Below, in pieces: positions 20,047-63,469 of a DNA stretch of 64,000 bases; the stretch's first letter is position 1; every line of letters starts with the position of its first letter. The stretch is from positions 1 to 64,000 of IMG/VR virus record IMGVR_UViG_3300025117_000050; one strand, 5' to 3'. A program made the translations under genes and the position numbers. Origin of the DNA: a virus. The notes under the pieces were generated by a model that was not told the DNA's origin, did not search any database, and saw only the letters and a program-made list of their open reading frames with translations.

Positions 20047-20476
20047 GTATAATATTTCCATTAATATTAATATAATAGAAGGAGTGATTAAAATGGGTGC
20101 TATTATACTTGGCATTATTTTACTAGCAATATTCGGTGGTAAATAATAAAAAAGGAGCGTATAAACATGAACGCAATAAAATCATTTAACCTAACATTTG
20201 CATTATCAAATCTACCTAACAATGTAAAAGATATATTTATAGAAATTATTCGTAGTGCTATGACAGGTAAAGAATTAACCCAAAAAAATAAAGATATATT
20301 AGCGTATGCATGTTATCATAGCACATTGCCGATAGATGATGAAAAGGTGCTGAGTTGGAGTATTCCAAATGCGGAAGATTAATTAAATCAAATTAAATAA
20401 GTAGAAATAATCAAAAATTCATCTTGACTTTTTAACAGAATACAAATATAATAATAGGAAGGAAGTGAACAATAAA

Positions 20477-20635
20477 TTGCCACATAAAATCATAAGAAAA
20501 CTTGATGATTTAGGTAGAATTCACATTGCAAAAGAAATAAGAAAACAAGTAGGCATTGAAGAAGGTGACGCTATATTAATGGAAGTTAATGAAAATGGTC
20601 AAATTGTATTGACTAAGGTTATGGATAAAGAGTAA
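20477..20635 (+). CDS. AbrB/MazE/SpoVT-family DNA-binding protein (52 aa, TTG start, not in ORF track)
   Basis: MPHKIIRKLDDLGRIHIAKEIRKQVGIEEGDAILMEVNENGQIVLTKV matches the AbrB N-domain pattern RKxDxLGRIxIPKExR. Confidence 0.85.
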   Translation: MPHKIIRKLDDLGRIHIAKEIRKQVGIEEGDAILMEVNENGQIVLTKVMDKE

Positions 20636-26465: not shown

Positions 26466-27640
26466 TATTTGACCTCCTTAGTAATTGTTAAGTTGAATTA
26501 TATCATAAATTGGTAGCAATGAGTGGATTTTTATCATAATATAAAATACATATAATAGGAGGAATATATTATGTCATCAAAAATAGATTACGAAAGAGAG
26601 AAAATGATTAAAAGTATAATAGAAATTTTCAGTCAAGGTGAAATAACAATAAATCAAATGAAAGAAGAAATAAATAATGTATTAAGAAAAGCAGATATTG
26701 AATTAGATAATATGTTCGAGGAAGATAGAATAATTAGACTAGATAGTTTATTAAGAGAATTAAAAGACAAATATTTACAAATATCAAATGGTACACATAA
26801 TGTATTTGAAGTAGATCCAATATGTATTGATAATATAATTAATAATTATAAGGATGTATTAATTACTTCAGATTTATATATTAATGGATTTATTAGCATT
26901 GGAAATATATCTCAAACAATGCGAAATATTAAAGATATTTATTCTACTAATAATTGGCTTGGAGTATCATGGAATTATGAAAATTGTGAAAGAGGTAAAT
27001 TTTATATTAAATTAAAAGATGTTAATAAAATTAAAGTAAATATAAGTTGTGAAACAATTTTATCATTTGATTTTTATGTTAACGATAAGAATTATACAAT
27101 GTTAAGTTTTAGACAAATAGGCAAGTGAAAAGGAGAACAATTAAATGCAAAAACATTGTATTTACAAATTAAAAGATAGTAAATCGACAGGTTATATGGA
27201 AGAATCGCTTAGTGAATATGTTATAGTAGAAGAATTTGCAACAAATCCTTTAGATAGTGATAAAATTATGCAATGTGTTTATAAGCATATCATTCCTGAA
27301 ACTATGAAATATACTAGTATGATACTTGGATATTGTGTTTTACCATGCAATGTGTTTGAAAATTATTTTGAGTTATATATGGAAACTTTTGAAATTAATG
27401 AGAAACTTAGAGAGTTAGGAATAGAATAATAAAAACATTAAAATAAAAGGAGTAGATTAATTATGCGTATAGTCATTGACAACAAATTATATTTCAAATC
27501 AATTAATGTATCATCTAAAACATCTAAACTAACTAAATTTCGTGAGAAACTATTTAATGTAATATCAAAAGTTTGGCCTTGGGCGTTGACATTAGTAATG
27601 TTTCTTGGATTGGCAGTATTGGGTTTGAGGTGTTTTTAAT

Positions 27641-28048
27641 ATGTTCAAACAATTAACCAATAAACAATTTCAACAATACATACAACAATATTGGAATCAA
27701 GAAGATGTATTAGAATATAAAAATTCAAAACTAGGACAAGGCATAGGGTATTACAAAGATGATAAACTTTTAGGTTTTGCATGGTATAATACTAAAACCA
27801 GTAAGTATTGGAGATTAAAACATTTATATCCTGAAATATGGATGATTTATTTATTAGAAGTACATCCAGAATATAGACAAAAAGGAATAGGAAGTAGTAT
27901 ATTAACTGAGATATATAAAAGAATGTCAAAAGGCAAGACATTGATTGTAGGTAGTGAGAGAATAGAAAAGCATAGGGAGTTTTATTCAAAGAATGGATTT
28001 ATCGAAGATGTAAGTATGAAATGGTCTTTTATTAAAAGTAAATTATAG
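27641..28048 (+). CDS. GNAT-family acetyltransferase
   Basis: LEVHPEYRQKGIGS and FYSKNGF. Confidence 0.85.
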   Translation: MFKQLTNKQFQQYIQQYWNQEDVLEYKNSKLGQGIGYYKDDKLLGFAWYNTKTSKYWRLKHLYPEIWMIYLLEVHPEYRQKGIGSSILTEIYKRMSKGKTLIVGSERIEKHREFYSKNGFIEDVSMKWSFIKSKL

Positions 28049-28065
28049 AAAAGGAGAATTATACT

Positions 28066-28755
28066 ATGAATCCATGCATAAATTATCTTACTCATATGCC
28101 AACAGATATTATGAATACATATGGCATAACAAAAACATTATTAACTAGAAGAGAAACTATATATTTGAAACATATTATGAAAAATATCTTTATATATGGA
28201 AACGAAGAAGAATTAAATGAAAAACTTAAAATGATGCAATTTGATTCTTTATTTCAATATTTAGGTTTTCTCACAAATAAGTTAAGAGCAATTTATAAAA
28301 TACCTAGAGATTATACAACAAATGATGCAGATAATATTGTCAAACAATACAGAAATAGTTTCTTTAAATTACTTGAAGATTTATATAAAGATTTAAAACC
28401 TATTATTGTGCTTGATTTTGATAAAACGATAACTAATAAAAATTTTCATAGTTTATATAATTATATTATAAATGATTATTATGTGATTATTAATAGTGCC
28501 AATCCTCAAAAAGATGTGATTGAGAATTATTTAATTAAAAATAATCTTCCTTTTCCAAAATTAATTTATGCCAATAAAGGGAAACAACGTAAAATTGTTA
28601 AATTGAAAAATATTGTATTTAAAAATCAAAAAAGAGTAATAATTTACATTGATGATGAAGAAGAATATTTAGATTATGGAATGTTGTTGACGATGTATTG
28701 TTATAAATATACAAAAGATGGAAGAATATTAAATCATACAATATTTAAGAAATAG
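28066..28755 (+). CDS. HAD-superfamily hydrolase-like protein
   Basis: VLDFDKTI motif I, NSA motif II and YIDD motif IV. Confidence 0.65.
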   Translation: MNPCINYLTHMPTDIMNTYGITKTLLTRRETIYLKHIMKNIFIYGNEEELNEKLKMMQFDSLFQYLGFLTNKLRAIYKIPRDYTTNDADNIVKQYRNSFFKLLEDLYKDLKPIIVLDFDKTITNKNFHSLYNYIINDYYVIINSANPQKDVIENYLIKNNLPFPKLIYANKGKQRKIVKLKNIVFKNQKRVIIYIDDEEEYLDYGMLLTMYCYKYTKDGRILNHTIFKK

Positions 28756-38951: not shown

Positions 38952-39464
38952 ATGAACTTATTATTCAGTTCAGATATGCACTATTATCATAAAAATCTAT
39001 CAATACACAGAGGATTTAATTCAATAGAAGAGATGAACGAGTTGATGATTGATAATCACAATGAAAAAGTTACTAAGAATGATCATATTTATATTCTAGG
39101 TGATTTTTCATTTGGTACAGTTGAACAAACATTAAAAATATTAGATAGGTTAAATGGAAATAAATATTTAATTATTGGAAATCACGATGAAAAAATGTTA
39201 AAGAGCAGAGAAGTGGTTAGTAAATTTGCATGGGTTAAAGATTATTATAAGTTAAAACATAATGGATTGAAAATTATATTATCACATTATCCATTTTATA
39301 GATGGGATTGTAGTCATTATGAATCGTTGATGTTTTATGGGCATATTCATGATCAAAAATTAGATATTGAGATTAAGAATTCTTATAATGTAGGTGTTGA
39401 TGTTAATGATTATGAACCTGTGAGTTTGGAGGAGATATTAGGGAAGATTGATTATAAAAAATAA
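38952..39464 (+). CDS. calcineurin-like metallophosphoesterase
   Basis: SDMH, LGDF, GNHD, SHYP and GHIH motifs. Confidence 0.9.
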   Translation: MNLLFSSDMHYYHKNLSIHRGFNSIEEMNELMIDNHNEKVTKNDHIYILGDFSFGTVEQTLKILDRLNGNKYLIIGNHDEKMLKSREVVSKFAWVKDYYKLKHNGLKIILSHYPFYRWDCSHYESLMFYGHIHDQKLDIEIKNSYNVGVDVNDYEPVSLEEILGKIDYKK

Positions 39465-39587
39465 TTACAAAAATTAACATAATATTAATATAAAAAATGA
39501 TTGCATAGGACGAACTCTGGTTATAATATATATTATAAAGCACTATAGAAGTGTTACAAAAGTGTAAAATAATATATATTATAAGGA

Positions 39588-40037
39588 GTGATTTTAATGA
39601 TTATTAAAACTCAAACTGCTAATGCTGTTAATGCTCAATGTTATAGGAAAGAGGAAGAGGTTGATTGGAGGTCGTGGTGTCCTAAACGTGGAGAGATTTA
39701 TTTGTGTCAGTTAGGAAATGAAGGTTTATTATATTCAGAAATTAAGGGTTATCGTCCAGTTTTAATAGCATCAAATGATATAGCGAACAGGCATAGCCCA
39801 GTAGTTACTATAATTCCATTAACTTCCAGTCAAATAAAAAATAACTTACCTGTTCATGTTAAAGTAGGGGTAGAAGAAGGGTTGCGAAATTTGAGTTTAA
39901 TTTGTTGCGAGCAGACTAAAACTGTGTCAAAAAATAGAATGTTTATAAACGGTAGTTTAGTTAAAATATGCAAATTAAGTAATGAATTAATGTGTAAAGT
40001 GGACAACGCATTAAAAATACAATTCGGATTAGTTTAA
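39588..40037 (+). CDS. mazF: MazF/PemK (NdoA-like) endoribonuclease, orphan
   Basis: KRGEIY..L..SE..GYRPVLI.SND..N..SP.V..IPLTS...LP.HV...EQ..TVSK.R...KVDNALKIQFGL; catalytic Arg and Thr present. Confidence 0.92.
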   Translation: MILMIIKTQTANAVNAQCYRKEEEVDWRSWCPKRGEIYLCQLGNEGLLYSEIKGYRPVLIASNDIANRHSPVVTIIPLTSSQIKNNLPVHVKVGVEEGLRNLSLICCEQTKTVSKNRMFINGSLVKICKLSNELMCKVDNALKIQFGLV

Positions 40038-40184
40038 TTAAAATAGTGTGGTTAGAATGTTAATATAATTATACATATTAATAAAAGGATGTGATGTTAT
40101 TTGATTGTGTGAAAATTTATAAAGTATTGTGTTTTTAGTTTATTGGTTTGGATTGAAATAATAAAATATTAAAGGAGGATAAAT

Positions 40185-41543
40185 TTGTTAGTTAAAAATC
40201 AAAAAGTTAAAGTTAAATGGAATGGAGCACATAGAAAATATTATGAAGAAAAAGGTTATCCATTTACTAATTATGGTGATGAATTAGAGATAGACATAAA
40301 AGATTTAGCACCAAAAAGTCAAAAATATGTTTTAGTTAGTTGTGATTATTGCGGTATACCATTTATGAGGAGGTATTGTAATTACAATACAAGAAAAGAA
40401 AAATACGGTAAAGATGATAAAGATTGTTGTGATGATTGCAGAGTACATAAAAGAGAAGAAACATGTTTAGATAAATATGGTTTTAAAAATGCTGTTCAAG
40501 TAGAAGAAATACAAAATAAAATAAAAGAAACTATTAAGGAAAAATATGGAGTAGAATATATATCTCAAGTAGAAGAAATTAAAAATAAAAAGAAACAAAC
40601 TTGTTTAGATAGATATGGAGTAGAATATACCTTGCAAGTTCCAGAGATTAGAGAAATGATTATAGAAACTAATATAAATAAATATGGAGTTGAAAATCCA
40701 TTTCAAAATGAAGAAATTAAAGAAAAAATCAGACAAGTCAATATGGATAAATATGGTGTAGAATATCCAATGCAATTACCTGAAATAAGAGAAAAAAGTC
40801 AAGAAACAACTTTTAAAAATCTTGGTGTTAAATATGCTATGCAATCTTATAAAACACAAGAAAAAAATAAACAATCTATTCAAGATAAATACGGATATAC
40901 AAATATTTTTCAGATACCAGAGATAAAAGAAAAAATAAAGAAAATTAATATTAAAAAATATGGAGCGGAAAATCCTTTAAATAATAAAGAAATTAGAGAA
41001 AAAGCTAATAAAACTATAAAAGATAAATATGGTGTTGATAATGTTTCACAGAATCCAGAAATACAAGCAAAAATTAGACGTTCATTTTATAAAAATGGTA
41101 CTACTCCTACTTCAATTCAACAAAGATATATTTGTTTTTTAGTAAACGGTAAATTAAATTTTCCTATTGGAAGAACAAATGCAGATATATTGATAAATAA
41201 TAATATAATTATTGAATATGATGGTGGTGGACATAATCTAAGTGTAAAAATAGGAAATATAACGCAAGATCAATTTAATAGAAAAGAAATTAAAAAATAT
41301 TATTTTTTAAAAAGTAAAGGATATAAGATTATTAGAATTGTATCTGCTAAAGATAATTTACCTAAAGAAGAGAAAAGATTAATTGATGCTATAAATATAG
41401 CAATTGATTATTTAAATCAAAATCATTCTTGGTTTGAAATAAATATTGATGATGGAAAATTAAGATGTATTTGTTATGAAAAAGATTATAATTTTGGAGA
41501 ATTAAGAAGAGGAACAAAAGAAAATTTAGCTATAAATACATAA
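40185..41543 (+). CDS. putative homing endonuclease: Zn-ribbon, ~23-aa KYGV repeats and a PD-(D/E)xK/DUF559-like C-terminus
   Basis: About nine KYGVE.P.Q..EI..K repeats; ADILI...IEYDGGGH. Confidence 0.7.
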   Translation: MLVKNQKVKVKWNGAHRKYYEEKGYPFTNYGDELEIDIKDLAPKSQKYVLVSCDYCGIPFMRRYCNYNTRKEKYGKDDKDCCDDCRVHKREETCLDKYGFKNAVQVEEIQNKIKETIKEKYGVEYISQVEEIKNKKKQTCLDRYGVEYTLQVPEIREMIIETNINKYGVENPFQNEEIKEKIRQVNMDKYGVEYPMQLPEIREKSQETTFKNLGVKYAMQSYKTQEKNKQSIQDKYGYTNIFQIPEIKEKIKKINIKKYGAENPLNNKEIREKANKTIKDKYGVDNVSQNPEIQAKIRRSFYKNGTTPTSIQQRYICFLVNGKLNFPIGRTNADILINNNIIIEYDGGGHNLSVKIGNITQDQFNRKEIKKYYFLKSKGYKIIRIVSAKDNLPKEEKRLIDAINIAIDYLNQNHSWFEINIDDGKLRCICYEKDYNFGELRRGTKENLAINT

Positions 41544-41582
41544 ATATTATATATTAAAAATAAAAGGAGGATTATATATTTA

Positions 41583-42176
41583 TTGATTGAATTTATTATA
41601 GGAGCATTTTTATATGCTAAATTTAAAAAAGGTTATAAGTTAAAATACATATTTAAATACCCATACATATTTGCGATAATACCACCTTTATTATGTGTTT
41701 TACTATACATATATTTAGAATATTGTGTTTTTAATCAGCAATATTGGTTTTTCCCTTATCAACATATAATAAAGACTACAACGCTTATAAGTTATGTTCC
41801 GTTGATTTATATATATAATTTATATTATAATGATATATATGAAAATGATACATTAAAATCATTTTTAACATCTCCTGCTAGTAAAACTACATTTTGTTTA
41901 GGATTAGGCTCATTTTTAAACTATATGGCAATTATCTCTAACAATATGAAAATGCCAGTATTTCCCAGTAATTGTTATTGGACTGGTTATATTAAACCTG
42001 AATTCATTAATGATGGTTTACATGTGCTAGGTGATGCTTATACTAAAGCAATCCCCTTATGCGATTGGATCGATTTTGGAATATATGTAGCTAGTCCAGG
42101 TGATATATTAATAAGATCATTTGCATTTTTAATTATTTATCATTCTATAAAAAATTCTAATAAAATGATAAAATAA
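41583..42176 (+). CDS. DUF5317-family membrane protein
   Basis: G.FLN...I.SN..KMPV...H.....TK...L.D.I.....SPGDILI. Confidence 0.75.
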   Translation: MIEFIIGAFLYAKFKKGYKLKYIFKYPYIFAIIPPLLCVLLYIYLEYCVFNQQYWFFPYQHIIKTTTLISYVPLIYIYNLYYNDIYENDTLKSFLTSPASKTTFCLGLGSFLNYMAIISNNMKMPVFPSNCYWTGYIKPEFINDGLHVLGDAYTKAIPLCDWIDFGIYVASPGDILIRSFAFLIIYHSIKNSNKMIK

Positions 42177-42208
42177 TTGTTGACACATAATTAACTCTGT
42201 GGTAATAT
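42164..42208 (+). promoter_or_regulatory. sigma-A promoter of the receptor-agrD operon, with the 18-bp element
   Basis: AATGATAAAATAATTGTT, then TTGACA(42180)-17-TAATAT(42203). Confidence 0.7.
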
Positions 42209-42244
42209 ATAAATAGAAAAAGTTGCTAAGGAGTTGATAGAGAA

Positions 42245-43039
42245 ATGATACATGATATTACAAATGCTTTGTTAAATTTTTTACTTGTAAGTGTTTTGGA
42301 GGAGTTTGTATGGTTGTTAATAACCATAATATTATTAAAAAGATTTGATTTGCTTGATAGATATAGATGGAAAGAGAGTATGCGAGAATTTTTAATACCT
42401 ATCTTACCAACTGCACTTTATATCAATTTATCTAGATATGTTTTACATATGCCTAGAATAATAATATTATTTGGATGTATATTTATATTTTATGGTTTGA
42501 CATTATATATAATAAAGAAAAATTCATTTATAGATGAAAAATTACCATATTTAAAAATATTAATGTTTGTATTTATAGGTATTCTTATTATAGGAATAAC
42601 AGAATTGATTTATATGCCAATAATTTTATATATTATACAACAACCAGTAACAATAATGAATCAAAATATTTTAATGAATTTTGCATTTTCAATACCATCT
42701 AGAATATTTCAAATATTATTAATTCTTGCATTAATTTATAAATATAATGAAATTAAATTATTCAGCAATATAATAAAAGATAAAGTATTATTAATTATTA
42801 CAGTGTTGTTTTTAAGTATTATATTGCTAATAGTATTTATTACAACAAAAATTATTCATAGTTATTGTTTAATTTTAAACTTTTCTTTATATTCACAAAT
42901 ATTAATTGGAATTAGCATAACAACAATTATAACATTAATAATATTTTTTTATCTTATTCCAATTAATTATTTAATAAATAAAATGTTTTTACTTAACAAA
43001 TCACATCAAAATATGTTTGATGATGATTATATAGATTAA
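42245..43039 (+). CDS. polytopic membrane protein, putative AIP receptor (AgrC-sensor-like, no kinase domain)
   Basis: About 7 hydrophobic segments, only a ~20-aa C-terminal tail, no H-box or GHKL motifs; directly upstream of agrD. Confidence 0.6.
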   Translation: MIHDITNALLNFLLVSVLEEFVWLLITIILLKRFDLLDRYRWKESMREFLIPILPTALYINLSRYVLHMPRIIILFGCIFIFYGLTLYIIKKNSFIDEKLPYLKILMFVFIGILIIGITELIYMPIILYIIQQPVTIMNQNILMNFAFSIPSRIFQILLILALIYKYNEIKLFSNIIKDKVLLIITVLFLSIILLIVFITTKIIHSYCLILNFSLYSQILIGISITTIITLIIFFYLIPINYLINKMFLLNKSHQNMFDDDYID

Positions 43040-43060
43040 AATAGAAAGGAGGGAAATTTC

Positions 43061-43180
43061 ATGAAAAAGTTTGCAATTATTACTTCTTTAATTGGTATTA
43101 TCGGCATTATCTGTGCAAATTGTATTAATTCTGCTTGGACATTTAACCAACCGAAAGCACCATCTATGTTAGTTAAGTAA
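43061..43180 (+). CDS. agrD: AgrD-type cyclic lactone autoinducer peptide precursor (39 aa, not in ORF track)
   Basis: SD AAGGAGG; MKKFAIITSLIGIIGIICANCINSAWTFNQPKAPSMLVK = hydrophobic leader, S-A-W-T-F core, NQPKAP follower typical of clostridial AgrD. Confidence 0.88.
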   Translation: MKKFAIITSLIGIIGIICANCINSAWTFNQPKAPSMLVK

Positions 43181-43197
43181 TTTATAACTACATAGAA

Positions 43198-43237
43198 TAT
43201 TTATAGTAGAGGATGATTGTTTTCTCTACTATAAATA
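43198..43237. terminator. hairpin terminator after agrD
   Basis: TATTTATAGTAGAG / CTCTACTATAAATA. Confidence 0.7.
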
Positions 43238-43257
43238 CAAAAAATAAATATAAATAC

Positions 43258-43286
43258 TTGTATTCTGGAGGATAGTATGGTAAAAT
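43258..43286 (+). promoter_or_regulatory. sigma-A promoter for the HTH-mazF / ORF / agrB unit
   Basis: TTGTAT-17-TAAAAT with extended TG. Confidence 0.6.
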
Positions 43287-43332
43287 AATAGATGTAATAT
43301 ATATAAAATATTAAATTGAGGAGTGATTAATA

Positions 43333-44229
43333 ATGTCAATATTATTTGGTAAGAAGAATGTATTAAAACCTACTTCTACAAATTCTATTTCTGAAATAAC
43401 AAAGAAAGAGTTAGCTTACAATATAAGAGTTGCCGTAGGTCATCGAAGTATTACTCAAGTCTGTAATATATTAAAAATGGTCGATCCAAAACCATTAGTT
43501 GACTTAATAAAAATGAATTATAATGAATTACCTGATAGACAATTACTTAGAAAAATTGCATCTGCAAGCGAAGGTAGGGTTTCTTATCAAAACCTTTATT
43601 CTGTCTGCGGTTATTCCGAATTTGATTCTGAAGAAGATCGTAGTTGGGCAAAGTGGGTTCCTGAACGTGGTAGTTGTTATATGATTGATTTAGGATGGAA
43701 TATGGATAGTGAGCAAAATTCTGTGCGTCCGGCAATAGTGATGCAAAACAACAAAGGCAATCAATACTCAGGAACAACCGTTATTATCCCTATATCTTCT
43801 CGTTCTAAAAAATTTTCTTCACAGATTCATGTATTATTAGAAAAAGAATTAGGATTTTTACGGGAATGTCAATGTTTTCCAGAACAAATTCGCTGTGTTT
43901 CAAAAAGGAGGTTCTTCTATAATTCTGTACCTTATAAAATCACTACTTTACCAGAACATAAATTATTAGAAATCAAAAACGCACTTGAGTTTGAACTAGG
44001 TTTTGAGCCTTTATATTTTGACGAAGAAAAAATATTTAAATTAATTTCTCATATTCGTTCTTTAGAAAATAATATTAAAATCAAAAAATCACATAATCTA
44101 ATTGATATATTAAATCAAAAAATGGATGATCTAAAAGAATACTGTTCAAAATATCATAAGAATCACAAGATTATCTTACAAGAATACGATAGAATCAACA
44201 ATTGCGGTTACAATGCAGTATCCATATAA
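43333..44229 (+). CDS. XRE-like HTH-MazF/PemK fusion with C-terminal helical extension
   Basis: N-terminal ELA..IR.AVG.RSI......P....LRKIA.AS...VSY..L...CGY; middle ERGSCY.IDL....SEQ..VRPAIV.QN..GN.YS....IPISS..IHV...EQIR.VSK.R. Confidence 0.85.
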   Translation: MSILFGKKNVLKPTSTNSISEITKKELAYNIRVAVGHRSITQVCNILKMVDPKPLVDLIKMNYNELPDRQLLRKIASASEGRVSYQNLYSVCGYSEFDSEEDRSWAKWVPERGSCYMIDLGWNMDSEQNSVRPAIVMQNNKGNQYSGTTVIIPISSRSKKFSSQIHVLLEKELGFLRECQCFPEQIRCVSKRRFFYNSVPYKITTLPEHKLLEIKNALEFELGFEPLYFDEEKIFKLISHIRSLENNIKIKKSHNLIDILNQKMDDLKEYCSKYHKNHKIILQEYDRINNCGYNAVSI

Positions 44230-44291
44230 AACAACAAATCCAACCAAAATAAACAAATAAAACTAAAACAAAAAAAAGGAGATCAATTAAA

Positions 44292-44633
44292 ATGATAATC
44301 TTTGATGAAAAACAATTAAAATACTTATTTAATAAATACAAAATAAGATATAAAATATTTGAAGAAACAAATATTCTACTTATAGATAGTGGTCTTGATG
44401 AGTGGTTAATCAAGTATCAACATGGAAGAGATCAACCATATTGCCTTATGCACAAAAATAAATTAAAACAAACTAAAAGGTTCCATGTGCAGAGATGGTT
44501 GTCAAATTTTTATCAATCACTTGATAGTCTATTGTCACATAAAAATATTTTTGTAGATCATTCAAGTTCAAAAAATACATATAAAAAATATAGAAATAAT
44601 AAAATAAATAATAAAAGGAGAAAAAGTTGTTAA
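44292..44633 (+). CDS. hypothetical protein overlapping the agrB start
   Basis: SD AAGGAG; overlaps the agrB start by 7 nt. Confidence 0.6.
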   Translation: MIIFDEKQLKYLFNKYKIRYKIFEETNILLIDSGLDEWLIKYQHGRDQPYCLMHKNKLKQTKRFHVQRWLSNFYQSLDSLLSHKNIFVDHSSSKNTYKKYRNNKINNKRRKSC

Positions 44634-45421
44634 AATATATAAAAAACTACATAATAACATTTCGTTATATCAAACTATTCTCATATTGGAATGCAAGATA
44701 TTTGCATAACAAACTAAAAGAAGAAAGAATTAGAGAATCACAAAACTTACATAATCCACATAAAGAAAAACATAAATATTATTATATATTGCAAATGATA
44801 ATTAAAAAATTATTTCAAATAATTAATAAAATAATTTCTTTAACTCCATTAGGAAGAAAACTATCATCGTACATAACTGAAAAATATTCACAATATAAAC
44901 AGAAAGAGAAAAAACCTAAAAAAATATACAACAGATACACCTACTATTATGGTCTTCAAATAATCATCGGAGGCATAAATAAATTCCTTCTACTAATCAT
45001 ACCAGGCTTACTATTTAACATCTTGCCGCAACTATTACTAACCACGTTATCATTTGTATCACTAAGAATATGGACTGGTGGTCTGCACTACAATTCTTAT
45101 ACCAAATGCAGCTACATATCACTATTATCCTTCACACTCACAGCACTACTATCAAAATACATCATATTAAATCAATTTATCACTATGTCAATATTTCTAT
45201 CTGTATTTATATTAATTTTAATCTATGCCCCTGTAGAACATCCAAACAGACCAATAAAAGAAAAAGAAAAAATTAAATACAAATTAATCGCATTATTTGT
45301 ATTAAGCACCTTAACTATTATCTATATGTTTACAAATAATGTTATTATCTGTAATTCTATTATATATGGGATATTATTAGCAGGTATAATTATGTTACCA
45401 ATTATAAATAAACTAAGATAA
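44627..45421 (+). CDS. agrB: AgrB accessory gene regulator B (peptide-processing membrane protease)
   Basis: LRIWTGGLH...YTKC (catalytic His/Cys) and IYAPVEHPNRP motifs. Confidence 0.93.
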   Translation: MLKYIKNYIITFRYIKLFSYWNARYLHNKLKEERIRESQNLHNPHKEKHKYYYILQMIIKKLFQIINKIISLTPLGRKLSSYITEKYSQYKQKEKKPKKIYNRYTYYYGLQIIIGGINKFLLLIIPGLLFNILPQLLLTTLSFVSLRIWTGGLHYNSYTKCSYISLLSFTLTALLSKYIILNQFITMSIFLSVFILILIYAPVEHPNRPIKEKEKIKYKLIALFVLSTLTIIYMFTNNVIICNSIIYGILLAGIIMLPIINKLR

Positions 45422-45552
45422 TTATTAACATAATTTCGTAAATGGTCGATAAATGTCGGTAGGTGCGTATTGTTAATATGCTAAATATTATATAGAATAA
45501 TAGTATTAAAACATATTAATCACAAATTAAATTAAAATATGAATTTAGGCTA

Positions 45553-45606
45553 TTGTTTTTTTATTATTAAGGTATTATAATAGAACAAATATACAAACAA
45601 ATGTTC
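45553..45606 (+). promoter_or_regulatory. sigma-A promoter with a downstream LexA-box-like site
   Basis: TTGTTT-17-TATAAT(45576); AAAC-AAAT-GTTC at 45595-45606. Confidence 0.45.
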
Positions 45607-45861
45607 TACAAACAAATAGAGGAGGAGATTGTTACGAATAAAACAGTTTACACAATAAAAGATGAAAATGACAAATATGTACATGGTAATAGTATTAAAA
45701 AAATTAATGAAAAGTATTATTATTCCCCATATTCATGTTTAGAAGATGGTTGTATTGCTTATACTAATAAAATAAGAGTAGAGGAAGCATTGACTACTCT
45801 TAAATTACATAATCAACTAGGTGGGCTAGGTCACAAATTTATTATTACGCTTGTTTCATAA
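45601..45861 (+). CDS. small hypothetical protein; true start probably just after the GAGGAGG at ~45619-45625
   Basis: ORF track plus internal SD. Confidence 0.5.
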   Translation: MFYKQIEEEIVTNKTVYTIKDENDKYVHGNSIKKINEKYYYSPYSCLEDGCIAYTNKIRVEEALTTLKLHNQLGGLGHKFIITLVS

Positions 45862-45883
45862 TCAATAAATAATAATTTTTCTA

Positions 45884-45912
45884 TTGACATAGCATACTAA
45901 TACATATATAAT
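45884..45912 (+). promoter_or_regulatory. consensus sigma-A promoter of the repressor operon
   Basis: TTGACA-17-TATAAT. Confidence 0.85.
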
Positions 45913-45959
45913 AATCATTAATGAGATATTATATATAAATAAAAAAGAGGTGAGTAACT

Positions 45960-47336
45960 ATGCTTAATATTAAAAATGCTATGTTGATAAAAGAATTAAA
46001 ACCACTAATAATTAAATATGGAAACAATTCAAAAATTTATAATCTTGTTCACGAATCCTTTATTAAAAAGGGTTTAACGGGTAGTAATGCAAAAAATCTA
46101 TTTACAGGTAAACTACCATTAGAATCTTTAGATATCACTTGTCAAAAAGAATTATATTTATTATTTTCTTTTACTGATAGCATGAGAAAAGCATTAAATT
46201 CATTTGATGAAATGTCTAAAGATACTTTTGGTTCAGAAGAAGAGTACTCAAAATTAAAACTAGAAAATTATTTTACTCCTATGGAAATTGAAGAGTTTAC
46301 GGATTTCGTGATAGAGAAAGAAGAAATAAGTAGATATCCTTACAGATTAAAAAACATGTTAAAAGTTGGGGAAAATCACTATATAGGCATTATATCTGCT
46401 AGAGAATTATCTTGGATAGATGCCTCCAATGACATTGTTTATGATTTCGCTGTACAGCGTGATCCCAAAATTGATATATTTGGCATGAAACGTATTAATA
46501 CTGATTTAAAGAAAATAGATGAAATGACAGAGAAGTTACTTTCTGGCAATTACTTTTCAGATGAAATTAAGTTAAATGTTAAGAATGATGGTGAAGATCA
46601 TATCGAATTCGATTCAAAAGACGGAATTTATGGTGATCTTATTATTCATTCAGGAACAATAACTTGTTTTGACGGTTATCACAGAAAAGCAGCCAATTCA
46701 AAAGTTATGAATATTAATAATGAATTGCAATTTAATTGGAAACTAGGTGTTACTAACTATCCAGAACCTAAAGCAAAAAAATTCATGATTCAAATTAACA
46801 AACAAAAACCTATTAAGATTGAACACATCAGAAATATTGATGAAACAAGAAATGAAAATGTAATTGTCAATAATATTATCAATAATTCTAATTCCGAACT
46901 TGCTGATAAGATTAAAGATTCTGATGCAGAATTAAAACATGGTGGATTAACTAAAAAATCTATATTATCTTTAGCAATAGAAGAACAATATAAGGAATTT
47001 TTAGTTACTAAAATCAATAATATTGAAATATCTAATTGGATAGTAGAATTCACAAATCATTTAATGGGATTATATACTAACGAATTTTTATTTAATGTAG
47101 ACAAAACTAAAAAAATAAGTTATATTAATCATAAGAATATGTTTATGGGATATATCGCACTTTCAAGAAAATTGTATAAGCAAGATGATTGGAAAAATAA
47201 AACTAAAAAAATAATGGAAAGCGTTGATTTTAGCATTGATAATGATATTTGGAAAAGTATTAAAATCAATGAAGATAATTTAAATAAAACATCAAAGAAT
47301 GAATTATATAATATATTTATTAAAAAGCAGGTGTAA
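45960..47336 (+). CDS. YopQ/SroE-like DndB/ParB-fold protein
   Basis: 458 aa; VQR and CFDGYHR (DGQHR-type) motifs, FMIQINKQKP; adjacent to a YopR-like gene as in SPbeta. Confidence 0.7.
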   Translation: MLNIKNAMLIKELKPLIIKYGNNSKIYNLVHESFIKKGLTGSNAKNLFTGKLPLESLDITCQKELYLLFSFTDSMRKALNSFDEMSKDTFGSEEEYSKLKLENYFTPMEIEEFTDFVIEKEEISRYPYRLKNMLKVGENHYIGIISARELSWIDASNDIVYDFAVQRDPKIDIFGMKRINTDLKKIDEMTEKLLSGNYFSDEIKLNVKNDGEDHIEFDSKDGIYGDLIIHSGTITCFDGYHRKAANSKVMNINNELQFNWKLGVTNYPEPKAKKFMIQINKQKPIKIEHIRNIDETRNENVIVNNIINNSNSELADKIKDSDAELKHGGLTKKSILSLAIEEQYKEFLVTKINNIEISNWIVEFTNHLMGLYTNEFLFNVDKTKKISYINHKNMFMGYIALSRKLYKQDDWKNKTKKIMESVDFSIDNDIWKSIKINEDNLNKTSKNELYNIFIKKQV

Positions 47337-47341
47337 AATAA

Positions 47342-48412
47342 ATGGTAAAACATAGAAACGGGAGAAAAAATTTAGCAGAAAGAGTGTTTAAGCATGATAG
47401 AGATGTTAAAGAAGAATTCTTAAAATCATTGAAACCCTCAACTGCTAATACTGTAAGAAGTATACTTTTTAAGGTAGATGAATATGAAGAATTAATTGGG
47501 AAAAGTATATATGATTTTAATTTAGATGATCGTGATGATTTTATTATATCTATGTTCCCTAATAAAAGTAAAGGTGTTATTAATACAACTAGATCATATC
47601 TGGTAGGATATATTAATTATTGTATTGACAATAACCTTGTTAGACATATGGAAAATAGATTTAGTTTAATCTCTAAAGATGATATAGATAATTATGTCAA
47701 TGATATGGCTATGCAAATGAAGTACCTGTCGAAGGAAGAAATTAAAGAAGCACAAAGTAAATTGGTTAATAATTGTGATAAATTAATTTTGCAATTAGTT
47801 CCTTTATCAGCCAGAGGTCGCACCGAAAAGGATAATACTAATGAAGAATTAATAAATTTAAGAGTGCAAGATGCTGTAGAATCTTACGAAAAAGGCAATC
47901 TAAAACTTTGGAATAATGATGGAGATTTTAGGTATATAAAAATTGATGATGAAACAATAGAATTATTAAAGAAAACTATAAATGATGATAAATATATCAT
48001 TAATAATGGAAGTGAATATAGTCGTAAAAGACATGATAAAAAACTTGGCAGAGGCATGGGAGAAAAAAGTTTCCCTTTAAATGATACTGGCTATGTTTTT
48101 AGAACTGCTGGCAAGAATAAAAGGGGTAAAGTTAAATCCAATTATTTTAATTCTAAAATTAATATAATAAAAGATTGGGTGGAGAATCCATTTATTAACA
48201 TAACTAATTTACACGCATCAGGTATGATTGATTATGTCATCCAATTAGAAAATGAAAAAGGAGAAGAATTAGATAATAACGACTATATAGATGTTTGTGA
48301 AAAATATTTATTTGGTAAACCTAGAATTTTGCCCAATGGTGAAAATGATTGGAGTATGTCAATATCAAAATTAAAGACAATGGTAAAAGATTATATTAAT
48401 ATTAAATCATAA
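47342..48412 (+). CDS. MrpR/YopR (SroF)-like tyrosine-recombinase-fold master repressor
   Basis: E..IGKSIYDF core-binding N-domain; DKLIL.L....EELINL and NL.ASGMI motifs; canonical HxxR not evident. Confidence 0.72.
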   Translation: MVKHRNGRKNLAERVFKHDRDVKEEFLKSLKPSTANTVRSILFKVDEYEELIGKSIYDFNLDDRDDFIISMFPNKSKGVINTTRSYLVGYINYCIDNNLVRHMENRFSLISKDDIDNYVNDMAMQMKYLSKEEIKEAQSKLVNNCDKLILQLVPLSARGRTEKDNTNEELINLRVQDAVESYEKGNLKLWNNDGDFRYIKIDDETIELLKKTINDDKYIINNGSEYSRKRHDKKLGRGMGEKSFPLNDTGYVFRTAGKNKRGKVKSNYFNSKINIIKDWVENPFINITNLHASGMIDYVIQLENEKGEELDNNDYIDVCEKYLFGKPRILPNGENDWSMSISKLKTMVKDYINIKS

Positions 48413-48424
48413 GGATGTGAAAAA

Positions 48425-49279
48425 ATGGCGAAAAATAGTATTAACTTATCTGACTATGAAGATATAGAAGTTTATAATATGGTTAGGTTTGGAATTATAG
48501 GTAGATTTCCTAATAATTTTTGGGGTGGATTAGATACTTATAAAACTGCAAAAGACCTGACTAGATATATGTTTGAAAATATTCTTGAATGGAGTATAGA
48601 AGATATTAAGCATAAGGTAACAGCAGATATTTTTTATGAAAATAAACTTGGTAATATGCTAAAAACACTTTTTGATAATAATTTATTAGATGCATTGCTT
48701 AACGCATACCCAGAATTAGCAGATTGGGTAGAAGAAAAAAAGAATAAAATTATTATCGAAAAAGAACCAAGAGAAAAATATACAGATGAAGAGTTAATAG
48801 AAAATTTACAGCAAAAATATAAGGAATTAAATAGAACACCTTATATAAGAGAAATGTCTGAACCAGAAGGAAATGTTTATATATCAAGATTTGGTAGTTG
48901 GAGTAATGCTTTAATTCTTGCTGAGTTAATTGAGGACATATGTGTAGATGTAGATAATTCAGAAGAAGCAATTAATAAAGCGCAAAGGGAAATTAAAGAT
49001 TTTGCGTATAAAGTAGAAAGATTACCAACTAAAAAAGAAGTAGATAATTTATTTTCTCCTGGAGAATTAATATCATATTTCGGTTCTTTAAAAGGACTTT
49101 ATGATTATTTAAGTGAAGGTTATACAGAAGAAGAATTAATAAATATATTAATTGATAAAAGAAATAAATTAGGGAGAAATCCAATAAATAAGGATATAAA
49201 ATTCCCAAGACCAATTATCTTTATTGATAAATTCAATAGTTGGGAGAATGCCTTAAAAGAAGCAAGATTAGATGAATAA
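48425..49279 (+). CDS. DUF4046-like domain plus homing-endonuclease-associated repeats (putative DNA-binding protein)
   Basis: RFPNNFW..RYMFE.ILEW..NAYP; repeats YT.EELI..L......L.R.P....F.SW.NAL..A. Confidence 0.65.
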   Translation: MAKNSINLSDYEDIEVYNMVRFGIIGRFPNNFWGGLDTYKTAKDLTRYMFENILEWSIEDIKHKVTADIFYENKLGNMLKTLFDNNLLDALLNAYPELADWVEEKKNKIIIEKEPREKYTDEELIENLQQKYKELNRTPYIREMSEPEGNVYISRFGSWSNALILAELIEDICVDVDNSEEAINKAQREIKDFAYKVERLPTKKEVDNLFSPGELISYFGSLKGLYDYLSEGYTEEELINILIDKRNKLGRNPINKDIKFPRPIIFIDKFNSWENALKEARLDE

Positions 49280-49300
49280 TTTAATCTTGCTTCTTTTATT
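49258..49300. terminator. terminator closing the repressor operon (possibly bidirectional)
   Basis: AGAAGCAAGATTA / TAATCTTGCTTCT followed by a T-run. Confidence 0.7.
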
Positions 49301-49533
49301 TATGTCAAACCCTTAATCCATTTTTCAGCAGCTAAACAGCATCCTTCAAAACTATTGAATTTAATATCTTCATTCAAAGAAATATAAATAATATCGTTAT
49401 CACGATCTATCTGAAAGTGATAGTAATATGTATCAGGCATATAATAAATATACGCTTTACATCCTTTTGCTCATCTTGCTATGCTGACCCACGTAGGGTA
49501 TACTTTACGCTTTAATATTCTTTTAAATTTCAT
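49300..49533 (-). pseudogene. minus-strand ORF with an in-frame TGA at codon 21
   Basis: SD AAGGAAG; MKFKRILKRKVYPTWVSIAR*AKGCKAY...KWIKGLT. Confidence 0.5.
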
Positions 49534-50405: not shown

Positions 50406-51017
50406 ATGAAACCTATAAACAAAGAATTAATCATCAAAGTATGTGAGCATATAATAGAACACAATCTTTCTTATAGAAAAATAGCTGATATATTCGGAAT
50501 CAATTTCAAAACTGTTTACAATTATACACAAATGATTGAAAGTATTGATTCCGAATTACATATAAAAGTCCAAAAATGTTTAAAAGAGAGAAAGGAAAAA
50601 CATCATAAACATTTATTGAAAAACTTAAACAATATCTATAAAGAAATTTGTGAATATTTTATTTGTGGAAGTACCATGAAACAGACTGGAATACATTTTA
50701 ATTCCAGTAATCGCTCTATACACTATTTATTCCATAATTATGTTAAATATAATGATCCTGAATTATATGTTATGATTTTAGAAATGATAGAATTAAATAA
50801 ACTTAAATCAATTAAGACACGTTCTGGAATAAGAAAGATGAAAAACATTGAAGAAAGATTAAATCTTTGTAAGACTATTATTAGTGACAAATTAACTTTG
50901 AAAGCAACAAGTGAAATATTTGATTTAGATGTAAAGACGATAAAAAGTTATATTAATAGTATAAGAGATGTGGATTATGGATTGCATGATGAAGTTTATA
51001 AACATTTGTGGAGATAA
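50406..51017 (+). CDS. protein with three tandem SpoIIID-like HTH units
   Basis: Units resembling I..I..SYRKIA..FG....TV......I..ID.EL...V. Confidence 0.65.
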   Translation: MKPINKELIIKVCEHIIEHNLSYRKIADIFGINFKTVYNYTQMIESIDSELHIKVQKCLKERKEKHHKHLLKNLNNIYKEICEYFICGSTMKQTGIHFNSSNRSIHYLFHNYVKYNDPELYVMILEMIELNKLKSIKTRSGIRKMKNIEERLNLCKTIISDKLTLKATSEIFDLDVKTIKSYINSIRDVDYGLHDEVYKHLWR

Positions 51018-60220: not shown

Positions 60221-60976
60221 ATGTACGATTATTATGAAGAACCACCTTATTATGAACCAACTTTAGCGGATGAAATTTTAATAGAATATCAACAAAAAAT
60301 GAAAGATGCTTTGTTAGATAGTGTTAAGTCACAAATTGAGAATATCAAGGATGAAAATGTAAGATTAAAAGAAGAAAATGGAAACTATAAACAACGTGAA
60401 AGAGATATTATAAATAAAGAAAATGATTTAAAATACAAAGAAGAAAATCTTAAAAGAGAAGTTACTAATGAATTTTATCAAAGTAATATTGGTGATACTT
60501 TAAAGCAATATGTAGAAGAGTGTGAAGTATGGTTTGCTGATATAAATCGTTATCAAAATGAAAAATGTAATTTATGTAACGAAGAAAGAAAATTAGTTGC
60601 AAATTTTCCAAATGGTGAAATTATTAAAACTGCATGTGCTTGTGCAAAAATGTTAAGTAAATATGTTCCTGCTATAAGCACAACTACAATGATTAAATTT
60701 AGTAAACGAGATAGTAGGTATTCTTCAGAAAGAATATTTTATTTTAGTAGAAGTTATTCTCCTAATAATGATAGAAATAGTTATGATTATGATTATCAAG
60801 AATTTAAAATATATCATGTTGTTAATGAATTTAATGAAAGTATTATTGAATTGCATAAAAATAAATCATATGGCGAGAGACTAGGATTTAAAAGCAAAGA
60901 AGAATGTCAGAAGTATTGTGACTGGCTGAATAAAAAAGATGATAATTGCGAAGAAATTGAATTAGATGATGAATAA
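60221..60976 (+). CDS. hypothetical phage protein, coiled coil plus CxxC
   Basis: ORF; C-terminal F.SKEECQKYCDWLN. Confidence 0.6.
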   Translation: MYDYYEEPPYYEPTLADEILIEYQQKMKDALLDSVKSQIENIKDENVRLKEENGNYKQRERDIINKENDLKYKEENLKREVTNEFYQSNIGDTLKQYVEECEVWFADINRYQNEKCNLCNEERKLVANFPNGEIIKTACACAKMLSKYVPAISTTTMIKFSKRDSRYSSERIFYFSRSYSPNNDRNSYDYDYQEFKIYHVVNEFNESIIELHKNKSYGERLGFKSKEECQKYCDWLNKKDDNCEEIELDDE

Positions 60977-63469
60977 AAGGAGCATAAATACATGATCGTT
61001 AAAATAGGAAACACTTATTACAATTCCACAGAACAATTAATATTACTAATACTTAGCAAAGAAGAAAAATCTCATATTGCTAATATGGAAGAAAATAAAA
61101 AGAAATATTTATCTTTTCCTAGTGATTATAATATAAATAATGCTAAGATGATTTTAGAAAATGTACCTGAGTGGATACTTAAGTGTATTGATTGTTAGAA
61201 TATAAAAATAAATAAGGTATAAAATAAATAGTAAAGGAGAATATATTATGTCAGAATATATAGATAAAGTAGTAAAAGTAATAAATACAGATGGATTTCA
61301 ATTTCAAGACAGTAATGAATTAGAAATGTACATAGGTAAAATAGGAATAATTAAAATTGATCATAATTATGGATTTAGAAATAGATTTATTGTAGAATTT
61401 TATGATAAAAATGTAAATGATATTGATAATCAAAAAGGTAAAATATGTTTTGCTATAGATAATTTAGAGTTTATAGGTAAAAATGAAGAAAAAGATAAAG
61501 AAGATGTAAATGATAATACTTTACCAGATGATAATATAAATAAAAATAATTTGCAAGACATAATTAAACAAATGCTAAATGTAATAGGTGACTACGAAGG
61601 AAGTAAAATATCAATGGGTATTTGGCCTCCAAATGAAATATATTTTTTAGTTTATGAAACTGAAGCATTAATTGAAATAGATAAAAAAGAAAAATGTGCT
61701 TATTTAAATACTGATACAATGACACATCATTTGACTAGTAGTATGTTAGATGAATTGAATCAGATTGTTAAAATAATTGATGATAATATTGATGTTATTT
61801 TAGAGTGTGTAAAATAGTAATACATTATAACGTATTATTATTAAATAAAATATAAAAAAGAAAAGGAGAAATGAAAACATGAACGAATTATTAACTAGTT
61901 TATTGGAGAATCCAGAGGCATTAAAAGAAATGATTAAAGAACAAGTAGGTCAGTACAAACCATTAGTTTATATGATTGGGACAGAATTATTAGAAGTTTA
62001 TAAAGACTTCGCAAATAATACTGAATATTTTATTGTCAAAGCAAAAGTAAGAAAGAATCAATTTGATGCATATGTTGAAGTAGGATTTACAAAAGAACAA
62101 GCAATGATGTTTTTACTTGCTGATATGGATAGTATGAAAAAATCAATTAGTAATGTTACAAACAGTGTAGGGAATAAGAGTAAAAAAGAAAAATAAAATG
62201 ATACATATTATATGTTGTGGTTGATGTCTATTATAACCACAACATATAGTTAAATGTTTGAATAAAATGAATGTTTTGAGATGAAACTAAAAAGGAGTAG
62301 AAATAATATGTCATTAAAACACTACAAATATAATAATAACCAATGTATTATTAATAATCATTCAGAATCATAAAATTATTAAAATGGTTTTTACATCATG
62401 GAGCAGAAAATTATTGTGGTGGAGATATTCCAATGTTTAATAATTTATATGATATGTTAGATGAATTAGATGTAATATATAAGAATTTTAATTATGAAAG
62501 TGACAATGAAGATGATTCTTATCTAATAAATGATGTTTCTGAATTAGAAGAATTCTTATTAAATAATATTAATGAAAATACATTAATTCCATCAGAAGAT
62601 GAATATCCTATATTAGTATCATGGTATAGAGTGGAAAGTTTTGATAGACATGGAGATGTTAGTATTAAATTAATGAATTTTACTTCTATGAAGGAAATTA
62701 AAAGTGTGAATGATTTTATTGATGAATATAAAAAATAAATAGAATGGAGAAATAATATAAAACATGAATAAAAACTTTATAATCGAATGTATTGATATCG
62801 TAGAACAAATAAAATTAAATTCAATAGTAGCAATAACTAAGGATAACGAAGAATTAAAATATCAACTTAAATATGATGAAGAATTTAAAGATTTAAATTT
62901 AGAATGTTTAGACAAAGAAAATGAAATATGGGATTTTGGTGATACGATAGAAAATGTTAAAGAAGGGTTAGTATGTGATGCTGTTAGATATAAATATCAG
63001 AAAATAAGATTAATAAAGGAGGATTAATATTATGATTGATAAATCATGTTATACTTGTAAAAGTGCTAATTTATCAAAGGACAAATTTCCTTGCAATAAA
63101 TGTCATAATCAGAATAATTGGAGTTATAGATTCGATGTTCAATTATTATGTTTAGTCGGAGTAGGTATAATAGTTGCTGGATTTATATTGTTATAGTAAT
63201 AATAAAATAAGTTAATAAGGAGGAATAATACATAATATGAAAGTTAAAATTTTAAAAATTAAGAATAGTATTTCTAAAAGAAAAATTGGAGAAATAATTG
63301 AAGCAAAGAGACTTTATGAATTAACCAATGAAGAATTAGAAGAATCTATAGGTTATATTCCTAATGATGAATCGTTATGGGAGAAGAATGATATATTTAT
63401 CCATGAAGAAGGAAATTATTATGTATATATGCTTGAAAATGAAATAGAGATTATTGGAGAATAATTTTA

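Follow-up and report, generated by a model that had tools for sequence, protein, structure and literature searches.

Organization of the locus

The DNA analyzed here, termed the window, comprises the first 64 kb of the 96.7-kb virus record IMGVR_UViG_3300025117_000050 from IMG/VR, a record rated as 49% complete. It has a G+C content of approximately 25%, and nearly all genes of the window are carried on the plus strand. The study, which is entirely computational, is focused on a 298-codon open reading frame (ORF) of this window, which is preceded by a GGAGTG ribosome-binding site located 8 nt 5' of its ATG and whose product combines a predicted N-terminal XRE-type domain, a MazF/PemK endoribonuclease core and a helical C-terminal tail. 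This fusion gene is embedded in a set of Agr-type peptide-signalling genes followed by genes resembling the repressor module of SPbeta-like phages (Table 1). An earlier note, made from the sequence alone, had placed the gene between agrD and agrB; both flanking genes were correctly named, with agrD upstream and agrB downstream, but a 113-aa ORF intervenes before agrB.

Table 1. Positions of genes, protein domains and sequence signals at the fusion-gene locus, numbered from the first base of the window
Feature	Positions	Strand	Evidence and remarks
Short phage MazF, 149 aa	39588..40037	+	Pfam PemK, E 4.9e-23; no antitoxin gene adjoining
DUF5317 membrane protein	41583..42176	+	Pfam, E 9.2e-13; conserved in the cassette
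Multi-pass membrane protein, 264 aa	42245..43039	+	Present in 13 loci; conserved acidic C-terminal end
agrD-like propeptide, 39 aa	43061..43180	+	Present in 13/13 loci; Ser spacing constant
TACATA (UACAUA)	43189..43194	+	9 nt past the agrD stop; sole invariant block among 10 aligned loci
16-bp hairpin after agrD, no U-tract	43198..43237	+	RNAfold per locus; inverted repeat
Candidate promoter-like site TTGTAT-17-TAAAAT with TG extension	43258..43286	+	Read by eye
XRE-MazF-tail protein (fusion gene)	43333..44229	+	298-aa ORF; 66 homologs; AlphaFold2 (AF2) model, pLDDT 81.7
Predicted five-helix XRE/Cro-C1-type domain, residues 19-95	43387..43617	+	Fold matches (VIA); profile hits HTH_3/HTH_19/HTH_26/HTH_31
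Acidic linker D-x-E-E-D-R-S-W, residues 96-110	43618..43662	+	Alignment; E101 and W105 invariant
MazF/PemK endoribonuclease core, residues 111-224	43663..44004	+	Pfam, Foldseek, HMMER alignment, VIA
Three-helix C-terminal tail, residues 225-298	44005..44226	+	Alignment, AF2; K263, Y270 and C271 invariant
Basic ORF, 113 aa	44292..44633	+	Overlaps the agrB start by 7 nt; adjoins agrB in 6 loci
agrB	44627..45421	+	Pfam AgrB, E 9.1e-37
Perfect TTGACA-17-TATAAT promoter-like site	45884..45912	+	Ahead of the yopQ-like gene
yopQ (sroE)-like gene, 458 aa	45960..47336	+	tblastn to SPbeta-like phages; UACAU-free
mrpR (yopR/sroF)-like repressor gene	47342..48412	+	Pfam MrpR_N_CB, E 4.2e-13; UACAU-free

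Domain architecture of the XRE-MazF-tail protein

Searching 5.8 billion proteins yielded 66 relatives of the fusion protein with identities of 41-99%, and since nearly all of them are 285-300 aa long and align from end to end, the three-part architecture represents a protein family rather than a one-off fusion. In the AF2 model, five helices (residues 21-92) are followed by a beta core (114-222) and three long helices (231-295). The anatomy described in the earlier note, namely an XRE-like domain, a PemK core and a helical tail of about 75 residues, thus matches Pfam, the AF2 model and the fold comparisons given below.

The MazF core was recognized by the Pfam family PemK_toxin (PF02452) over residues 111-219 with an E-value of 3.4e-17 and a score of 63 bits against a cut-off of 23.1. 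Structural comparison using Foldseek resulted in template-modelling (TM) scores, by target, of 0.91-0.92 for 4mdx_A and 1ne8 (0.92 for 4mdx_A) at 32-33% identity, and the program VIA matched the core to 4mzm_A with a Z-score of 19.0 and a root-mean-square deviation (rmsd) of 2.0 over 114 aligned residues, corresponding to the SH3-like beta-barrel of MazF, Kid and CcdB. In the HMMER alignment, R132 pairs with R24 and S155 with T47 of Staphylococcus aureus MazF, the equivalents of R25 and T48 in Bacillus subtilis, so that the earlier description of the catalytic Arg as kept and the Thr as replaced by Ser was correct. R132 is invariant in 33 relatives, position 155 is occupied by Ser or Thr throughout, and the exchange of Thr for Ser retains the hydroxyl group. 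Furthermore, the motifs SEQ, VRP, QN-x-GN and EQIR are common to the fusion protein and S. aureus MazF. Because the catalytic Arg aligns and stays invariant and Ser or Thr is kept at position 155, the active site looks intact as judged from the alignment.

The core is connected to the XRE domain by the strongly conserved acidic linker listed in Table 1, and a similar acidic stretch with a Trp residue is found ahead of the short phage MazF as well as in relatives devoid of the XRE domain. When modelled alone (pLDDT 81.3), the C-terminal tail formed a three-helix unit whose best structural match was the RNA-binding domain of influenza NS1 (Z 8.1, rmsd 3.5); this resemblance serves as a lead only, because its score lies within the chance range for helical bundles. 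An Atlas search with the tail returned nothing informative.

Classification of the N-terminal domain was achieved by two routes. Comparison of the protein model with 48,161 PDB representatives by VIA identified 2ofy_B as the best fold match of this domain (Z 9.2, rmsd 2.4, 75 aligned residues), accompanied by C.AhdI (Z 8.1), the CapH N-terminal domain (8.0), SinR (7.9), ImmR (7.9), P22 c2 (7.3) and HigA structures (6.6-6.7). Altogether, XRE, Cro, C1 and controller proteins accounted for approximately 35 of 50 among the matches listed, covering residues 19-95 and ranking after the MazF structures. The second route was a profile built from 11 N-terminal domains, which retrieved 666 proteins at E <= 1e-3 out of 1.84 billion representatives; among 60 sampled proteins, Pfam recorded HTH_3 in 35, HTH_26 in 11, HTH_19 in 11, HTH_31 in six and Peptidase_S24 in six. 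Residues 18-100 searched as a single sequence matched no Pfam family at E-values up to 1, and the profile found nothing below E 0.8 among PDB sequences. Since fold matching and transitive profile homology agree independently, the domain is placed in the XRE family as a divergent helix-turn-helix (HTH) domain, as far as model and sequence allow, which bears out the HTH-like nature proposed for it earlier.

A protein featuring such a domain could act chiefly as a DNA-binding transcription factor standing in for AgrA, with the XRE domain binding operators in the spacer between agrD and the fusion gene or at the yopQ promoter, and with the MazF fold and the tail serving as a scaffold for dimerisation or ligand sensing. 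This explanation agrees with the mostly repressive function of XRE/Cro-C1 superfamily members, with the AT-rich palindromes present in the gene's own promoter region and with the lack of AgrA in the phage described below. However, the predicted recognition-helix positions vary among the relatives and include Asp and Pro, no shared operator was seen on inspecting 11 regions upstream of the fusion gene and its orthologs, the residues of the ribonuclease (RNase) active site are conserved, and a form of the protein without the XRE domain persists beside yopQ. A role mainly in transcription is therefore regarded as very unlikely.

Conservation and gene content of the Agr-type cassette

To compare the gene neighborhoods, the window proteins were searched by tblastn against loci fetched via the family of the fusion protein and, separately, via agrB. 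In this way, 13 agr-bearing contigs were compared, namely 12 IMG/VR contigs of up to 167 kb and one 176-kb contig belonging to a Bacillota metagenome-assembled genome (MAG). All 13 of them share the order DUF5317, 264-aa membrane protein, agrD, fusion gene, (113-aa ORF), agrB, (small ORF), yopQ-like and mrpR-like gene. The fusion gene keeps its position between agrD and agrB down to approximately 30% protein identity, two of the loci having been seeded from agrB alone. Scanning one genome per species resulted in a single match, which was the 176-kb Bacillota-MAG contig sharing this cassette.

The agrD-like propeptides of all 13 loci feature a Ser residue five positions ahead of a conserved [N/H/S]-[Q/E]-P motif (N-Q-P-K-x-P in the window), so that a five-residue lactone ring is predicted. 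The ring residue is Ser and not Cys in all of these propeptides; the ring reads S-A-W-T-F in the window, and its sequence varies between phages.

Neither AgrC nor AgrA appears to be encoded by these phages: in the record and five relatives, two of them 100% complete, no match to PF14501 (AgrC-type HATPase_c_5) or PF04397 (LytTR) exceeded the cut-off. The observation in the earlier note that the fusion gene sits where a response regulator might be expected fits this result, and the host may supply both AgrC and AgrA. The same note had regarded the 264-aa membrane protein encoded at position 42245 as a receptor. This assignment was not sustained: Pfam, NCBIfam and PHROGs contained no family matching the protein, a search of longer proteins for relatives fused to a kinase came back empty, and the closest Atlas cluster is mostly viral and carries no name. 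Because this search and the Atlas clusters, all of them unnamed, gave no link to a kinase, the designation 'AgrC-like' is so far unsupported. Residues E19, D38, Y65 and K104 of this membrane protein are invariant, and no kinship to AgrC or to CPBP proteases could be demonstrated.

The basic 113-aa ORF likewise had no match in Pfam, NCBIfam or PHROGs. It was considered as an antitoxin gene and rejected, given its overlap with the agrB start and its arrangement in contig L002, where it stays with agrB at a distance of about 2 kb from the fusion gene; this arrangement identifies it as a companion of agrB. No MazE-type antitoxin gene adjoins the fusion gene, its neighbors being agrD and the 113-aa ORF. 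The sole match to PF04014 (AbrB/MazE-type) in the record was a 56-aa ORF at 20465-20635 (36.9 bits) lacking an acidic tail. This ORF is separated from the fusion gene by about 23 kb and from the closest mazF gene by about 19 kb, and may encode a transition-state-type regulator or a detached antitoxin.

XRE folds placed beside or fused to a toxin domain are known from XRE-type antitoxins, such as HigA, MqsA and HipB, and from single-chain toxin-antitoxins, such as CapRel and EzeT. Accordingly, the fusion gene might represent a self-contained toxin module, i.e., a single-chain toxin-antitoxin or a moron for abortive infection or superinfection exclusion, whose position among the agr genes reflects co-transcription only. 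The XRE domain and the acidic linker, or else the tail, would then silence the MazF core in cis until it is triggered. The succession of DNA-binding-type domain, acidic Trp-containing linker and MazF resembles a head-to-tail fusion of antitoxin and toxin, no mazE gene adjoins, with the only AbrB/MazE-type ORF being distant and tailless, PHROGs classifies MazF-like phage proteins as morons, and XRE domains act as antitoxins in HigA-type systems, which are present among the fold matches. The XRE fold stands beside a toxin in HigA as it does in the fusion protein, for which neutralisation in cis is hypothetical. On the other hand, a moron that merely rides along would not usually keep its position, as the fusion gene does between agrD and agrB in 13 of 13 contigs despite strong sequence divergence, the XRE domain is missing exactly in the sole relative without agr genes (contig L008), and the distribution of UACAUA in the repressor operon and after agrD, presented below, indicates a regulatory role. 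In view of these findings, a free-standing toxin module appears rather unlikely.

In L008, the agr-less relative, a gene for a MazF-plus-tail protein without the XRE domain lies directly upstream of yopQ-mrpR and follows a yopP-like integrase gene. Judging from this layout, the XRE domain accompanies the agr genes, and the MazF-plus-tail part belongs with the lysogeny module. The region (L008, 6489-10977) encodes, in order, the yopP-like integrase, a 98-aa ORF, an 88-aa ORF, the MazF-plus-tail protein and the yopQ-like and mrpR-like proteins. The product of the 98-aa ORF possesses a strongly acidic, Tyr-rich C-terminal tail and is a candidate MazF partner.

At least six contigs, including L005, L007, L009, L010 and L011, carry another MazF paralog, the short phage MazF, on the upstream side of the cassette. 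The fusion protein may thus be considered an antitoxin-like modulator acting on this paralog or on the host MazF via mixed dimers, the linker or the tail, similar to the inhibition of host MazF by AimX and YosL in phage phi3T. The joint occurrence of both paralogs in the cassette and the lack of an antitoxin gene next to the short one speak for such a role, as does the presence of MazF inhibitors at the equivalent locus of phi3T (PMC10769878). Protein P0010, a natural fusion of a truncated MazF of the short type and a protein of the focal type, i.e., one of the XRE-MazF-tail architecture, also points in this direction. However, the catalytic residues are conserved although an inert decoy would not need them, and several contigs carry the fusion gene with no short MazF detected in the fetched flanks, which makes a purely modulatory function quite unlikely. 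P0010 itself comprises 404 aa, occurs on 19 contigs and includes the full-length focal-type protein; its arrangement resembles a deletion of the DUF5317 gene, the membrane protein gene and agrD from between two mazF paralogs.

The repressor module and the position of arbitrium

The genes downstream of the cassette relate the phage to the SPbeta group. In a tblastn search of 50,697 phage records, the matches of the yopQ-like protein were confined to phi3T, SPbeta and other SPbeta-like phages (24-27% identity over 77%), to Geobacillus virus E3 and to Psychrobacillus phage Perkons; its counterpart in phi3T is yopQ. The annotated gene order in phi3T, located on one strand, is aimR, aimP, aimX, phi3T_92-94, yopP, yopQ and yopR. 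Judging from gene order and sequence similarity, the agr cassette occupies the place held by arbitrium in phi3T, directly upstream of yopQ-yopR. No tetratricopeptide-repeat protein of the AimR kind was found among the cassette genes in general family scans, no search aimed at AimR or AimP having been made.

In phi3T, arbitrium acts via the host MazF, the activity of which promotes lysogeny; AimX and YosL bind and inactivate host MazF, and phi3T_93 binds MazE (PMC10769878). Shortly downstream of the repressor operon of the window, a 203-aa protein with an SpoIIID-type HTH (E 3.9e-12) is encoded at 50406-51017.

Distribution of the MazF cut site UACAUA

U^ACAUA was reported as the strict cut site of MazF from B. 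subtilis, Listeria monocytogenes and S. aureus (bioRxiv 10.64898/2026.08.06.743204). Occurrences of this motif and of its pentamer UACAU (TACAT in DNA) were compared with synonymous-codon shuffles, in which each protein and its codon usage are preserved. The set representing the repressor operon consisted of the yopQ-like and mrpR-like genes of 14 contigs, i.e., 28 genes.

In these 28 genes, TACAT was observed 14 times compared to 38.0 expected occurrences (standard deviation (sd) 5.2; lowest of 200 shuffles 25), making it the most depleted (z -4.9, ratio 0.37) of the 621 pentamers expected at least 12 times. The complete motif TACATA was absent (0 observed, 8.2 expected; lowest of 300 shuffles 2). 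The ORFs of the whole record, with 148 TACAT observed and 127 expected, showed no genome-wide depletion. Moreover, of all TACAT-free intervals in the 96.7-kb record, the longest (45901-49458) takes in the yopQ-like, mrpR-like and HNH-repeat/DUF4046 genes; in G003, a complete relative of 167 kb, the longest interval of this kind (60488-63265) likewise spans yopQ-mrpR. UACAU avoidance as a general SPbeta trait was rejected, since phi3T shows none (yopQ 5 observed vs. 2.2 expected, yopR 1 vs. 0.9).

Two further assumptions on the motif were examined and dropped. Avoidance of UACAU by both mazF genes for self-protection was not found, the counts being 14 observed vs. 12.7 expected for the fusion gene and its orthologs and 3 vs. 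3.1 for the short mazF. Loading of the signal genes with UACAU holds true only for DUF5317, where TACAT was commoner than in the shuffles (27 vs. 18.4, sd 2.9, 11 loci; six in the window copy), while the membrane protein gene (28 vs. 26.9) and agrB (27 vs. 32.1) were as expected.

GATC-containing pentamers formed the second-most depleted group in the yopQ/mrpR genes (GGATC 2 vs. 12.5; GATCT 5 vs. 19.3), which probably reflects avoidance of restriction sites. Outside the repressor operon, TACATA was commoner than in synonymous shuffles in G000 (69 vs. 45), G003 (127 vs. 71) and G004 (81 vs. 51); this excess may reflect codon-junction bias or selection for cleavable transcripts.

In the spacer between agrD and the fusion gene, 17 TACATA were observed vs. 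1.7 expected over 13 loci. In 10 of the 13 loci, one TACATA lies 4-12 nt downstream of the first nucleotide of the agrD stop. Directly 3' of the spacer motif, RNAfold predicted a hairpin whose stem sequence varies between loci while its pairing is kept. Boxes resembling TTGnnn and TGnTAAnAT were recognized by eye 70-100 nt before the start codon in 11 of 11 upstream regions. Because these promoter-like boxes precede it in every region, the fusion gene probably heads its own transcription unit running into agrB.

A proposed role in the lysis-lysogeny decision

The explanation favored here, at somewhat less than an even chance of being correct, is that the XRE-MazF-tail protein represents an active MazF-family RNase which spares the repressor mRNA and feeds back on signal genes within a phage decision module. 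Of the three functions considered in the earlier note, i.e., an RNase, a DNA-binding regulator or a heterodimer partner of another MazF, the RNase is indirectly supported by the apparently intact active site together with the non-random UACAUA distribution. This distribution also suggests RNA cleavage as a link between peptide signalling and the choice between lysis and lysogeny. In evolutionary terms, an XRE-type domain at the N-terminus and a three-helix tail would have been added to a MazF-family endoribonuclease, which would have become a fixed part of a peptide-signalling cassette. The fusion gene would have a promoter of its own and open a transcription unit ending at agrB, and the enzyme, either by itself or jointly with the short phage MazF, the host MazF or both, would cut RNA at UACAUA. 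As the repressor operon is free of UACAUA, its mRNA would survive, and lysogeny would be favored by a repressor message outlasting cleavage; this direction, i.e., that MazF activity favors lysogeny, is borrowed by analogy from phi3T. Cleavage at the site between the agrD stop codon and the 3' hairpin would separate the agrD message from the hairpin and may thereby feed back on signal production, and sites in several leaders of the fusion gene itself may provide additional feedback. The XRE domain and the tail are envisaged as control modules for operator binding, oligomerisation or partner docking, with the peptide signal or the host state setting the RNase activity.

Several findings weigh against this proposal. 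The motif pattern could stem from the host MazF or the short phage MazF instead of the fusion protein, and in many family members EMPLT replaces EQIR in the likely RNA-contact loop, so that cut specificities may differ between members. The orthologs of the fusion gene are themselves not depleted of UACAU, as evident from the counts above, and the lineage L006/G004 has neither the spacer TACATA nor pentamer avoidance in yopQ-mrpR. Moreover, the motif counts were obtained from related loci and hence are not fully independent. Concerning the control modules, the putative recognition helix is poorly conserved, as outlined above. The promoter of the fusion gene was read by eye, and its boxes at 43258-43286 are absent from the promoter-scan sites shown; a terminator scan of 39300-46100 called no intrinsic terminator, the agrD hairpin without U-tract included. 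Finally, the connection between the peptide and the protein is hypothetical, and the neighboring membrane protein has no demonstrated AgrC kinship.

A farther-reaching version of the RNase proposal, possible but doubtful at present, is that the XRE-MazF-tail protein is the effector, inside the cell, of a phage communication system of the Agr type that has no kinase and in which the lysis-lysogeny decision is written as a cut-site code. The cassette membrane proteins or the host AgrCA would sense the level of the cyclic peptide, and this level would determine how active or how abundant a phage-borne, UACAUA-specific RNase is; the repressor operon is free of sites for such an enzyme, while signal genes and other transcripts would be cleavable. 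Such a system would be an arbitrium analogue built from other signalling components and with its output at the RNA level.

Comparison with known systems

The MazF enzymes of B. subtilis (EndoA) and S. aureus (PF02452; 4MDX, 1NE8 and 4MZM) resemble the core of the fusion protein (Z 19, TM approximately 0.9, 32-36% identity), share the catalytic Arg, the hydroxyl residue and the SEQ, VRP and EQIR motifs with it, and are reported to cut at the very motif that is non-randomly spread in the cassette. In comparison with them, the fusion protein possesses about 110 extra N-terminal and about 75 extra C-terminal residues and Ser in place of Thr, and its gene is phage-borne, lies inside agr genes and has no adjoining mazE.

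The arbitrium-MazF system of phi3T (PMC10769878) corresponds to the present locus in that a peptide module is located on the same strand directly upstream of yopQ-yopR. In phi3T, MazF activity is tied to the outcome of the lysis-lysogeny decision, a tie which we infer for the phage studied here. The signal genes of phi3T are aimP and aimR, whereas agrB and agrD, specifying a cyclic peptide made at the membrane, are present here. Furthermore, phi3T uses the host MazF, whereas MazF is phage-encoded in this case and no AimX-like inhibitor was identified. Unlike the yopQ and mrpR genes of the lineage described here, those of phi3T are not depleted of UACAU.

Phage-borne agrB and agrD in combination with the lack of agrA were described for Clostridioides difficile phage phiCDHM1 (PMC3901668). 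That phage is reported to encode an agrC kinase (PMC3901668), whereas none was found in the record and the five relatives searched; instead, the MazF fusion and two membrane proteins of unknown family replace the kinase, beside an SPbeta-type repressor module.

Megablast of the cassette against the 50,697 phage records gave zero matches, and tblastn of the fusion protein against the same records gave matches to the MazF core only (coverage <=47%), the full architecture being found in none of them. No published description of an XRE-MazF fusion, or of an agr cassette at an SPbeta repressor locus, was found in the literature searched. Taken singly, MazF, XRE domains, agr genes in phages and the link between arbitrium and MazF were known before; new in this analysis are the statistics on the cut site, the anatomy of the spacer and the transitive homology to HTH_3.

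Known examples of phage communication are arbitrium and a few phages that carry quorum-sensing genes or eavesdrop on them; for Agr genes in phages, the mode of action is an open question, since the phages carrying them lack a regulator. The lineage described here consists of 140-170-kb phages of low-GC Bacillota which possess their own MazF, fused to a predicted HTH domain, inside an Agr-type cassette at the position of arbitrium, with the MazF cut site purged from the repressor operon and fixed beside agrD. If the proposal holds true, the coupling of peptide signalling to MazF would have arisen in two versions, each with its own signal genes, and the lysis-lysogeny switch would include sequence-specific mRNA cleavage as a programmable layer. 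Psychrobacillus phage Perkons (MT325768.1; 137 kb), which has been cultured and harbors a PemK/MazF gene (15268-15597) and a yopQ-like gene (27149-28192) approximately 12 kb apart, might be a tractable relative.

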